From Escherichia coli (lineage in GTDB: Bacteria > Pseudomonadota > Gammaproteobacteria > Enterobacterales > Enterobacteriaceae): a stretch of DNA of 64,000 bases. The notes beneath the pieces were generated by a model. That model was not told where the DNA came from. It searched no databases and saw only the letters and a list, made by a program, of their open reading frames with translations. Position numbers and translations under genes: made by a program. The stretch lies in the NCBI RefSeq assembly GCF_003334385.1, contig NZ_QOWN01000003.1, one strand, 5' to 3'. Shown in pieces: positions 60,041 to 64,000 of the stretch; positions within the stretch are counted from its first letter, which is position 1; the number at the start of each line of letters is the position of its first letter.

Positions 60041-60077
60041 TTGAAAGCGTGAGCTTAACTCATTCTAATTCAATTAC

Positions 60078-61241
60078 TTATGCTTTCTTTGCATCCTCAA
60101 AAACCTCATGGTGGGACAAATTTGGGACATCGTCACCCAATATGTCGTCAATTTTCCTCGCGTGCTCTGTCAAATGATTAGGTGCAAGGTGTGCGTACCT
60201 ACGCACCATTTCGATAGACTCCCAGCCGCCCATTTCCTGAAGTACTGACAGTGGTACACCTGACTGAATTAACCAACTGGCCCAGGTATGGCGGAGGTCA
60301 TGAAAACGGAAATTTTCAATTCCTGCCCGACGACATGCTGTTAACCACGATGTGTTATAGTCCAGGCGCATCTTTCTGATGCTTGGTGTCATTGTCCCGT
60401 CAGGCCTTCTGGCAGCAGTGGTATAAACAAACACCCAGCGGTGATGTTTGCCTATTTGATCACGCAACACCTTGCAGGCAGTGTCATTCAGTGCGACCCC
60501 AATAGCGCGGTTTGACTTACTGTCTTCAGGGTTTACCCAGGCAACACGTCGCTGCATATCGATTTGTTGCCACTCCAGATTAATAATGTTTGATCTCCTC
60601 AGGCCAGTTGCCAGTGCAAATTTAACTACAGATTTCAGGGGATCAGAACATGCATCAATGAGTCTCCTGGCTTCTTCTTTTTCCAGCCATCTCACGCGTT
60701 TGTTTTTTACGGCAGGTATTTTGATTACAGGTGCTTTTTCAAGCCATTTCCAGTCTCGCTCTGCGGCGCGCAGAATAGCCTTGATCATTGCCAGGTGTGT
60801 TGCTTTTGTTTGCGTGCTCACCGATTTAGGTATATAGGCTGGTGGTTCTTTCCCTTTTCTTAATGCAGCCTCCACCTGCAACTTCCATCTCTCCTTTGTT
60901 TTTCGGTTATACGCTTTGCTGATAACTGAGTAGATCATTGCCTCCGATATATCCTTAATCCTTATTCCCTCGAAATGCTCAATCCAGAATGCGATTCTGG
61001 ATTTATCGGAATCGATGGATTTCTTGTCGGCTTTTTCCTCAAGCCATCTCAGGCAGGCTTCTTCGAAAGTGACATCTGGCATATCCCCCAGTCTGTCTAC
61101 TCGCCAGAGTTCTGCTTTTCGCTTGTCGTGCAACTCCTGAGCTTGCCGCTTGTCCTTTGTGCCAAGAGACTCCTTAATTCGCTTCCCGCCCGGGAGCGAG
61201 TACGAGGCGTACCATATTTCACCTCTGCGGAAGAGTGACAT
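60078..61241 (-). CDS. int: Phage tyrosine integrase, Rac/Qin (IntR-like) family
   Basis: 387 aa [48 protein letters not shown]... closely resembles E. coli IntR; conserved C-terminal [40 protein letters not shown] catalytic region. Confidence 0.9.
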
Positions 61242-61468
61242 TTTCTTTCCTCTGTTATGCCATCACCCGCGCTCACCTGGACAGTATGCAGCGGTGAATG
61301 AAGTGCTGCAATGCAGGCTTGCCGGGTTGTGAGATAAGGTGATCTTTTACCGGAAGAATTTTTTCGGGTTGCCTGTAGTCGGCCCGTTCGTATCCAGTTA
61401 ACAGCTGTTGGCCTTGATATCTTGAGAAACTTACAGGCCTCTTTGAGGGTGATACTGTGTGAATCCAT
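61097..61468 (-). CDS. xis: Putative excisionase / HTH DNA-binding protein (start at internal Met of ORF 61097..61561)
   Basis: [33 protein letters not shown]... is HTH-like and sits immediately upstream of int. Frame stays open to 61097, overlapping int by 145 nt, so the true C-terminus is uncertain. Confidence 0.5.
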
Positions 61469-61480
61469 ATTTTCGCCATT

Positions 61481-61500
61481 AAAAACCGCCCGAAGGCGGT
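61481..61500 (-). terminator. Intrinsic terminator-like hairpin between orf86 and xis
   Basis: Minus strand: ACCGCC-ttcg-GGCGGT followed by TTTTT, 12 nt upstream of the xis ATG. Confidence 0.55.
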
Positions 61501-61502
61501 TG

Positions 61503-61763
61503 TCAGTTGATTGATATGCGGCGCATTTTTCGAAGGCTGGCAATATGCTTTTCCTTCTCAATTTCTGCTTTAATCATATGTAGTTCGTTGTGATCGATTC
61601 GCTCAAATTCTGCATTAAATGAGTTAATTGATGCGGCTCTGGTTCTCCCATCCAGCCTTCGGAAGATCACCTGTGTCAGCGTTACCTTGCAGACTTGAAC
61701 CGGATAGTTGTTGGCGTCGACGAAGGACTGCCCGCGCTGGATCAGAACGAACACAGGTAGCAT
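61503..61763 (-). CDS. Hypothetical phage protein (86 aa) between xis and exo
   Basis: ORF MLPVFVLIQRGQSFVDANNYPVQVCKVTLTQVIFRRLDGR... in the position of lambda ea/orf60a-type accessory genes; no family recognised. Confidence 0.4.
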   Translation of the reverse strand: MLPVFVLIQRGQSFVDANNYPVQVCKVTLTQVIFRRLDGRTRAASINSFNAEFERIDHNELHMIKAEIEKEKHIASLRKMRRISIN

Positions 61764-61801
61764 TCCTTAACTGTCATATCATTTGCACCTCGTTGCTACG
61801 G

Positions 61802-62482
61802 CTATCGCCATTGCTCCCCAAATACAAAACCAATTTCAGCCAGTGCCTCGTCCATTTTTTCGATGAACTCCGGTACCATTTCGTCAAAAACCTCCATGTA
61901 TTTTTCATCCCGTTCGACCACGACATAATGCAGGCCTTCACGCTTCATACGCGGGTCATAGTTGGCAAAGTACCAGGCATCTTTTCGCGTCACCCACATG
62001 CTGTACTGCACCTGGGCCATGTAAGCCGACTTTATGGCCTCGAAACCACCGAGCCGGAATTTCATGAAATCCCGGGAGGTAAACGGGCATTTCAGTTCAA
62101 GGCCGTTGCCGTCACTGCATAAACCATCGGGAGAGCAGGCGGTGCGCATACTTTCGTCGCGATAGATGATCGGGGATTCAGTAACATTCACGCCGGAAGT
62201 GAACTCAAAGAGGGCTCTGGCGTCGTTCTCGTACTGTTTTCCCCAGGCCAGCGCTTTAGCGTTAACTTCCGGAGCCACACCGGTGCAAACCTCAGCCAGC
62301 AGGGTGTGGAAGTAGGACATTTTCATGTCAGGCCATTTCTTTCCTGAGCGGGGTTTTGCTATCACGTTGTGAACTTCTGAAGCGGTGATGACGCCGAGCC
62401 GTAATTTGTGCCACGCATCATCCCCCTGTTCGACAGCTCTCACGTCGATCCCTGTACGTTGCAGGATAATGTCCGGTGTCAT
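61802..62482 (-). CDS. exo: Lambda-type 5-prime to 3-prime exonuclease (Red alpha)
   Basis: 226 aa [89 protein letters not shown]...; near-identical to lambda Exo as I recall it. Confidence 0.93.
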
Positions 62483-63264
62483 GCTGCTACCTTCTGCTCT
62501 GTGACTTTCTGTTTCAGGAATCCAAGAACCTTCACAGCTTCAGCCTGTGTTAGTTCTGAAGATGTGTAAATGTTGCGGCGAAAAATCTGGGAACAGAGCG
62601 GCAACAGGTCGTCATCCCACGTTTTTTCCATGGAAGTAAGAAGGGCGTTAATTTCCGACATGGTTTCTTCGTTAACCGGGGTGATGTCGCGTTCCGGCTG
62701 ACGTTCTGTAGTATATGCAGTATTTTCGACAATACGCTCGGCTTCATCCTTGTCATAGATGCCAGCAAATCCGAAGGCCAGGCGAGCACACTGAATCATG
62801 GCTTTGTGCCGTAACATCCGTTTGGGATGCGACTGCCACGGTCCGGTGATTTCTCTGCCTTCGCGGGTTTTGAATGGTGCGCGGCGACATTCATCCATCC
62901 ACTCGGTAACGCAGATCGGGTGATTGCGATCTTTGCGGTAAATCCGGCATGTACAGGACTCATTGTCCTGCTCAAAGTCCATGCCATCAAACTGCTGGTT
63001 TTCATTGATAATGCGGGACCAGCCATCAACGCCAACCACCGGAACGATGCCGTTCTGCTTGTCAGGGAAGGCGTAAATTTCTTTCGTCCAGGGATTAAGG
63101 CCGTACTGGTTGGCGACGATCAACAATGCGATAAATTGCGCATCGCTGGCATCACCTTTAAATGCCGTCTGGCGAAGAGTGGTGATTAGTTCCTGTGGGT
63201 CGACAGAATCCATGCCGACACGTTCAGCCAGCTTCCCTGCCAGCGTTGCGAGTGCTGTACTCAT
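62479..63264 (-). CDS. bet: Lambda-type single-strand annealing protein (Red beta)
   Basis: 261 aa [128 protein letters not shown]...; near-identical to lambda Bet. Confidence 0.93.
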
Positions 63265-63269
63265 CCGTT

Positions 63270-63566
63270 TTATACCTCTGAATCAATATTAATTTGGTGA
63301 CGGGCGATGGTTTCAGCCATGTAGCGGATGTGTTCTGCCATGCGTTCCTGAAAATCGACATCGTCATCAAATGCACGGGAAATAGCTTTTTTGCTGGCCC
63401 CGTGACGTTGCAGATTATCGATGCATAGCGATTCAAACAGGTGTTGGGGCAGACCTTTTTCCAGGTCGTCTGCCAGCTCAGCTTCAGTTTCTTCACGGGC
63501 AATTTGCTGGTAGTGTCGTGCCCATGACTGCTCTTCAATGCGATCGGGGATAAGCCAGGCATTCAT
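63270..63566 (-). CDS. gam: Lambda-type Gam (RecBCD inhibitor), 98-aa form
   Basis: [98 protein letters not shown]; close to lambda GamS. Confidence 0.9.
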
Positions 63567-63895
63567 GATTTATCACCTCCGAAATTTTCAAGCCTGTTGG
63601 CAATCATGATGGCGATATCAGGGATTGCTGGCGCTGTGGCTATACATGCGGGGTTGGCGCACAAACCATAGACGGCGGCAATCACGAGCTGTCTTTTCCA
63701 GTCGAGAGTTACTGGCTCAGAATTGGCGTCATCGCCGGACGTATCACTGCCTGGCTCGTTCTGAACAACGGTTTCGCCCTCCTGAGCGGCATCAACAGAG
63801 TTTTCCTGAATGATCTTCTCCTCAGTTTGTGCTGAGTCTTCTCCATCAGCGGCGTCATTTTCTCCAAAAGTTTCTGTGTAAGTGCTATCGCCCAT
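63563..63895 (-). CDS. Hypothetical phage protein (110 aa), acidic N-terminus and hydrophobic C-terminus, in the kil position upstream of gam
   Basis: [113 protein letters not shown]; stop overlaps gam start (ATGA coupling). Function unknown. Confidence 0.5.
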
Positions 63896-64000
63896 TACCG
63901 CACTACAGTCAGGGCAGTTACCCCATAAGCGCTAACTTAAGGGTTGAACCATCTGAAGAATGCGACGCCTCGGTGCCTCGTTAAGACGATGCCTCGCGTT

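Follow-up and report, generated by a model that had tools for sequence, protein, structure and literature searches.

Phage phiPOC-J13 lysogenises Escherichia coli MG1655 by inserting in ynfG and Shigella flexneri by inserting in the homologue S1742, and its authors describe the integration as site-specific (PMC4193171). The same ynfG site is used by phage 75/02 (PMC5447701). A 62.5-kb Shiga toxin (Stx) 1a prophage occupies ynfG in E. coli RM10410 (PMC10562709), and a further stx1a prophage has been described in this gene (bioRxiv 10.1101/2024.05.07.593058). Taxonomically, the two Shigella phages, 75/02 Stx and POCJ13, belong to Sepvirinae, genus Diegovirus. In this study, a 64,000-nt stretch of E. 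coli DNA (contig NZ_QOWN01000003.1 of assembly GCF_003334385.1; hereafter the window) was analysed, in which a shortened ynfG adjoins phage genes at the right-hand end. Positions 60026-64000 very probably represent the int-proximal (left) arm of a lambdoid, Stx-phage-like prophage integrated site-specifically at an attachment site (attB) within ynfG. This site is a documented phage attachment site and nothing appears to be deleted; the feature is ordinary and already known.

Over the arm, nucleotide identity reaches 98.6% with Escherichia phage PhiR5_2, compared with 97% for phiSTEC1589-Stx1c and 94-95% for both 75/02 Stx and POCJ13. Together with the RM10410 Stx1a prophage, PhiR5_2, 75/02 Stx and POCJ13 resemble the window copy in the integrase (1-2 amino acid differences), the ynfG site and 94-99% nucleotide identity over 3.9 kb. 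The window thus shares with the ynfG-integrating Sepvirinae the POCJ13 / 75-02 integrase type, the insertion in ynfG at a common att core, and a junction that coincides with the phage ends.

The ynfG attachment core and the two junctions

The features at the junction are as follows.

59486-60025, minus strand: 3' part of ynfG, encoding the Fe-S subunit of the Ynf selenate/dimethyl sulfoxide (DMSO)-type reductase, without codons 1-28; K-12 identity extends up to 60025
60019-60025, no strand: attL core CTTTAAA, presumably the 7-bp crossover (overlap) segment, and the sole segment common to attL, attR and K-12 attB
60026-60077, no strand: P' arm of attL, the stretch of phage DNA separating the core from the int stop codon, beginning at the first phage-specific base
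60078-61241, minus strand: int, encoding a 387-aa tyrosine integrase, DLP12 IntD-like with ynfG specificity (PHROG integrase families, 2.5e-106 and 1.4e-85)

Window positions 55861-60040 carry bidA (ynfK), clcB, dmsD, ynfH and the shortened ynfG in K-12 order, inverted. The open reading frame (ORF) finder called the ynfG remnant at 59486-60040 (minus strand, 184 aa, GTG start), and the int stop codon lies 37 bp from this call. In a base-by-base comparison, K-12 identity ended at 60025, placing the host/phage boundary at 60025/60026; the last 15 nt of the called ORF are phage DNA that merely prolongs the remnant frame as VVSNN. No Shine-Dalgarno sequence was seen upstream of this frame by inspection. 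The first-pass annotation, which had described a truncated ynfG with an integrase ending 37 bp away, was therefore accurate for the ORF as called, whereas the true boundary lies 15 nt inside it. The profile TIGR02951 DMSO_dmsB matches the remnant from profile position 25 on.

The closest complete genome is NZ_CM129855.1, with 100% identity over window positions 59400-63924. Its far prophage junction reads ...CGTAACCAA-CTTTAAA-ATCTTTGCACGCC..., with the attR core at L002 15612-15618. Beyond this junction comes the 84-nt start of ynfG, which carries the annotation of a partial 4Fe-4S protein, and then an intact ynfF; the prophage measures 61,928 bp from core to core. CTTTAAA is the only sequence common to the window attL, this attR and the uninterrupted K-12 site. 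The search for an att core proposed in the first-pass annotation thus gave a core at the window junction and, in the relative, at the far junction. Sharing of the core by attL, attR and attB, together with the far end in the relative, points to a simple insertion that would have moved ynfF and ynfE by ~62 kb, not to a replacement and not to a deletion. The earlier wording, in which a prophage arm replaces the ynfF-ynfE neighbourhood, does not fit the relatives, where both genes are displaced.

The attB sequence is AAGAT-CTTTAAA-ATCTT, in which the core is flanked on either side by a perfect 5-bp inverted repeat (window 60014-60030; K-12 ynfG codons ~25-30). The repeat search also reported a palindrome at the core. 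For tyrosine recombinases, two core-type integrase binding sites are expected on either side of the overlap region, and the AAGAT and ATCTT repeats are presumed to be these sites. The deposited records of PhiR5_2, 75/02 Stx and POCJ13 begin at window 60027-60028, directly past the core.

To define the distribution of the left junction, a 200-bp probe centred on it was matched against 5,426 complete E. coli genomes. The attL probe matched end-to-end in 89 of them, including O104:H4 outbreak strains; for the 5,237 remaining genomes with a match, it ended exactly at probe base 100, which is window 60025. The corresponding attR probe was found at full length in 82 of the 5,426 genomes, among them O104:H4 2011C-3493, C227-11 and HUSEC2011, as well as strain RM10410.

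Taken as a sequence of events, the IntD-like tyrosine integrase would exchange strands within the CTTTAAA core. Integration would split ynfG after codon 28 and leave the 3' 534 nt beside int at attL; the 5' 84 nt, with ynfF and ynfE, would come to lie ~62 kb away at attR, which is where they are found in relatives. Past the end of the window, a lambdoid genome of ~60 kb would be expected to end in ...AACCAACTTTAAAATCTTTGCACGCC..., followed by the 84-nt 5' end of ynfG and ynfF.

Integrase type, excisionase candidate and the argU comparison

The integrase is 100% identical to that of the NZ_CM129855.1 prophage, differs by 1 residue from that of PhiR5_2 and by 2 residues from that of POCJ13, and shows 99.5% identity to that of Shigella phage 75/02 Stx. 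Among the K-12 integrases, IntD of DLP12 has the same 387-aa length and 86.8% identity, compared with 23.8% and 24.1% over partial alignments for IntR (Rac) and IntQ (Qin), respectively. The designation as a Rac/Qin-type integrase given in the first-pass annotation is therefore to be replaced by DLP12 IntD-like. Rac and Qin, which are cryptic in K-12, resemble the window element in being lambdoid, in lying in the terminus region and in having a terminal integrase gene. Apart from the ~24% identity of their integrases, Rac differs in carrying recET instead of exo/bet and in sitting at ttcA, and Qin differs in that its intQ end adjoins rspB.

Lambda Int chains in the PDB gave no significant match to the integrase, the best matches being Xer and HP1 recombinases, and the Xer and integron-integrase NCBIfam models matched residues ~140-360. 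The R...HxxR...Y pattern of the tyrosine recombinase catalytic domain is present, with the motif VRRYAHL visible in the alignment, and catalysis is predicted on this basis.

One further ORF overlaps the 5' end of int.

61097-61468, minus strand: candidate excisionase of 123 aa with an N-terminal HTH_17 domain (Pfam HTH_17, 3e-8); overlaps the int 5' end by 145 nt

The NCBIfam model TIGR01764 'excise' scores 29.3 bits on this ORF, whose length is unchanged in 75/02 Stx, PhiR5_2 and 2G7b. It is probably the excisionase gene (xis), although the evidence is weak. A 68-aa ORF at 61273-61479 was also considered as xis and was rejected for want of a family match.

The cryptic prophage DLP12 and phage 2G7b (Nesevirus) are comparators for the attachment site. 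Both have a 387-aa integrase, 87% identical to that of the window, and an xis-like ORF overlapping int; the P and P' arms of their attP are homologous to those of the ynfG type, and the core geometry of 5-7-5 bp is the same. In contrast, they integrate in the tRNA gene argU with the core CTTCTAA, which forms the anticodon loop, whereas here the target is a protein-coding gene and the core is CTTTAAA. The argU anticodon arm reads ACGAC-CTTCTAA-GTCGT (L007 1224-1300), and in the annotation of K-12, DLP12 begins at tRNA nucleotide 33, the first base of this loop. The ynfG-type attP, rebuilt from attR and attL, contains no argU segment, while 2G7b and DLP12 have one. When it was compared with the 2G7b attP, ~110 bp of the P arm and the P' arm were conserved (the last ~28 bp of the window P' arm align with the 2G7b P' arm) and the core block was dissimilar. 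Phage 2G7b, with 88% nucleotide identity, had been considered as a source of a virion-derived attP for the ynfG site; it was rejected as an argU-type phage and used as an arm and core comparator.

The ynfG-type and argU-type (DLP12/2G7b) integrases differ at 51 amino acid positions, which cluster at residues 91-150, at 268-300 and in the C-terminal tail. These differences fall in the presumed core-binding region and one segment of the catalytic domain, while just 4 differences fall among the N-terminal 60 residues, presumably the part that binds the arm sites. This distribution suggests that the two groups would share arm recognition and differ in core recognition. We tentatively propose, with rather less than even confidence, that the ynfG attB imitates a tRNA anticodon stem-loop and that the lineage arose when a tRNA-specific integrase was recently redirected to a protein-coding gene, through a handful of substitutions setting core specificity. 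This idea is not stated in the literature consulted, and no search aimed at retargeting was made. The likeness of the ynfG site to the argU anticodon arm is the only mildly new point, offering a small testable example of a shift in integrase specificity.

The attR P arm of NZ_CM129855.1 also contains two copies of the direct repeat ACAAAGCTTTGCAT, 20 bp apart and ~75-110 bp from the core (L002 15505-15538). They are partly conserved in the 2G7b attP and are candidate arm-type integrase binding sites.

Early-left genes and the IS421/IS186 insertion

Beyond int, all early-left ORFs are co-oriented on the minus strand. The remaining features of the arm are listed below.

61484-61501, minus strand: GC-rich hairpin with a U-run, terminator-like, between the DUF4222 gene and xis (AACCGCCUUCGGGCGGUUUUUAA; -12.7 kcal/mol, z -2.0)
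61503-61763, minus strand: small early-left protein of the DUF4222 / phrog_285 type (phrog_285, 5.3e-33; DUF4222 in the identical RefSeq prophage)
61802-62482, minus strand: exo, lambda exonuclease, Red-alpha (PDB 1avq/6m9k, 2e-153, residues 1-226; phrog_149)
62479-63264, minus strand: bet, Red-beta single-strand annealing protein (TIGR01913 bet_lambda, 168 bits against a cut-off of 77; PDB 7ujl, 1e-121)
63270-63566, minus strand: gam, RecBCD inhibitor (phrog_259, 8.5e-57; PDB 5mbv/2uuz, 2e-52, residues 1-98)
63563-63924, minus strand: C-terminal 120 codons of a 690-aa early-left gene truncated by an insertion sequence (IS), containing the acidic ORF 63563-63895 of 110 aa (phrog_607, 9e-10)
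63925-64000, no strand: terminal 76 nt of an IS4-family IS421/IS186 element, with the transposase beyond the window (end sequence ATAAGCGCTAACTTAAGGGTTG; target GGGCAGTTACCCC)

When compared with the solved lambda proteins, Exo scored 512 bits over 226 aa, Bet 408 bits over Bet residues 1-178, and Gam 178 bits over 98 aa. Homologues of all three genes of the Red module are thus present at 61802-63566, co-oriented and overlapping or abutting. The arrangement resembles the lambda pL operon, with exo, bet and gam as close homologues of the same lengths, the order int-xis ... exo-bet-gam on one strand, and int beside att. It differs from lambda in the integrase, as described above, and in the attachment site; moreover, in the relatives the structural genes follow the short-tailed 933W/Stx-phage pattern, and an N4-gp56-family capsid and a nanS-p esterase are encoded. 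POCJ13, 75/02 Stx and PhiR5_2 have the same order of int, DUF4222, exo, bet and gam, followed by a large 'exoVIII' gene, and compared with this group the window copy alone has IS421/IS186 in the large early-left gene.

The hairpin and U-run lie on the transcribed strand between the DUF4222 gene and xis, which suggests that expression of xis-int from an early-left promoter would need antitermination, as in lambda. A simple promoter and terminator scan, whose counts did not exceed those in shuffled sequence, did not list the hairpin at 61484-61501.

In relatives, the 690-aa gene is intact (L001 6228-8300) and is annotated as 'RecE family' or 'exodeoxyribonuclease VIII'. The window is equal to the uninterrupted relative up to 63924, and all matches to relatives end there. 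The acidic ORF is the part of the gene remnant downstream of an internal methionine. The order of xis, an unknown ORF, exo, bet, gam and an acidic ORF given in the first-pass annotation thus stands as a gene list, with the last entry reinterpreted as the C-terminal remnant of a gene cut by an IS.

Matches to the 76-nt end were found in 2,254 genomes, with a median of 4 places per genome and at unrelated loci. In the two cases inspected, one in yeaR and one in a Rac recE, the matching end is 98-100% identical and adjoins an 'IS4-like element IS421 family transposase' gene. Terminal identity, multiple copies and unrelated loci together assign the element to IS421/IS186 of the IS4 family. The insertion target, GGGCAGTTACCCC, is a G-run/C-run site, and IS186 prefers such targets. 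After the prophage had integrated, a copy of this element interrupted the large early-left gene that lies upstream of gam. Two genomes match the IS end plus 10 flanking bases of the window site. One candidate for the same event, OW1E2, was rejected, as it carries an independent IS421 insertion in Rac recE (NZ_CP067245.1, L005 7983-10293). The 10 shared flanking bases probably reflect the preference of the IS for G-run/C-run targets in RecE-like genes.

Alternative explanations and consequences for the host

Several observations weigh against the site-specific integration set out above. The 7-bp core is defined by sequence identity alone, with the exact cleavage positions following from it only by inference. 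The far end of the prophage lies beyond window position 64000, and DNA inside the element may have been deleted or rearranged, for example through IS421. The 123-aa excisionase candidate is barely above the NCBIfam cut-off (28.8 bits); RefSeq annotates just the first 22 codons of this ORF, as a partial HTH pseudogene, and the ORF is unannotated in the deposited phage records inspected. Finally, when identity through 64000 was sought, no complete E. coli genome in the collection shared the IS421/IS186 insertion.

It was also proposed in the first-pass annotation that a Qin-like prophage, or another, sits beside a deletion running from rspB through the 5' end of ynfG and including speG. Only a single junction is visible in the window, as such a deletion would allow, and the IS421 copy 3.9 kb inside the element could in principle mediate rearrangements further on. 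However, ynfG is broken precisely at the att core that serves the 89 genomes and the ynfG-integrating phages, and attR with ynfF is kept in the 82 genomes that carry the right junction. The integrase is only 24% identical to IntQ, the K-12 Qin intQ end faces rspB ~10 kb from ynfG, and the window arm gave no match to Qin annotations. The deletion is consequently very improbable. The other reading offered in the same place, a prophage using an attB inside ynfG, is the one borne out by the 7-bp core at attL, attR and attB, the far end in the relative, the counts of both junctions, and the experimentally demonstrated integration of the near-identical POC-J13 into ynfG of MG1655 (PMC4193171). An assembly artefact, in which ynfG would be fused to an unrelated prophage copy from elsewhere in the genome, could be favoured by the multi-copy nature of lambdoid Red-region sequences, with a median of 3 places per genome matching the window arm, but it is scarcely credible given the identical junction in 89 independent complete genomes and its agreement with deposited phage genome ends to within 1-2 bases.

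The remaining alternative accepts normal integration in ynfG and supposes that the remainder is a decayed or partly deleted cryptic prophage, not an intact inducible 60-kb phage, with IS421 as the first sign of decay. Disruption of the early-left gene at 63924/63925 is consistent with this, as are at least one relative, LZHX12, in which just ~31 kb separate the attL-side and attR-side matches, and the RefSeq relatives, whose prophages show lesions such as a replication gene with a frameshift, a shortened tail fibre and a copy of IS1. In the window, int, the xis candidate, the DUF4222 gene, exo, bet and gam are all intact and 100% identical to the relative, and the arm displays no decay other than the IS. 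We consider such decay unlikely, though a real possibility, and retain integration of a Stx-phage-like prophage at the ynfG attB as the preferred explanation.

For the host, the insertion should inactivate the Ynf selenate reductase Fe-S subunit and may alter expression of ynfH-dmsD. K-12 YnfG starts with MTTQYGFFIDSSRCTGCKTCELACKDFKDLG, and C14, C17, C20 and C24, which form the first four-cysteine Fe-S cluster motif of the protein, fall in the missing part and are lost through the split after codon 28. According to PMC5203670, selenate reductase is a product of the ynfEFGH-dmsD operon. With this motif removed and the operon interrupted, the lysogen should be without Ynf reductase activity. 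The genes ynfH and dmsD would rely on their own promoters or on transcripts leaving the prophage. The int gene, the xis candidate and the Red genes are transcribed toward ynfG'-ynfH-dmsD. The simple terminator scan found no terminator-like site in the phage-derived stretch between int and the core, and the nearby site that it listed, at 60009-59994 on the minus strand, belongs to the coding sequence of the native ynfG. Transcripts from the phage could thus possibly run on into ynfH-dmsD.

Recognising that the strain is lysogenic for a Stx-phage-like prophage that integrates in ynfG matters little in itself. In Shigella and in Shiga toxin-producing E. coli, stx1 is borne by other phages that share this integrase and site, and the late region therefore merits a check for stx if the strain matters for public health. 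As anticipated in the first-pass annotation, immunity, lysis and cargo regions lie beyond the window, since 60026-64000 holds the left arm only. The immunity, replication, late and cargo regions of the window copy being outside it, the description of the late region as 933W-like comes from the relatives NZ_CM129855.1 and PhiR5_2.

In the NZ_CM129855.1 prophage, the immunity region is of the cI/cro/cII type, and a helix-turn-helix gene adjoins a RelE/ParE toxin gene; nanS-p, lysis genes, 933W-type structural genes and antirepressor genes are also present. Neither an stx ORF nor tRNA genes were found in this prophage, and the 1.4-kb gap between the Q-like gene and nanS-p is empty of genes and tRNAs. 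From its gene content, the element is classed as a Stx-type prophage without stx. It also carries an 8.4-kb gene with an LPD38 domain and a Panacea-domain gene. Near attR, an IbrB-like gene stands beside a gene of the PAPS-reductase family, possibly representing ibrA-ibrB. The gap and these genes fall within L001 21587-25625 and L002 2807-13807. In the same genome, ynfE is also truncated, with its N-terminus missing, and abuts a second site-specific integrase gene (L002 18191-20000, corresponding to 2486191-2488000). A second mobile element thus appears to sit in the same operon, two genes from the ynfG prophage.

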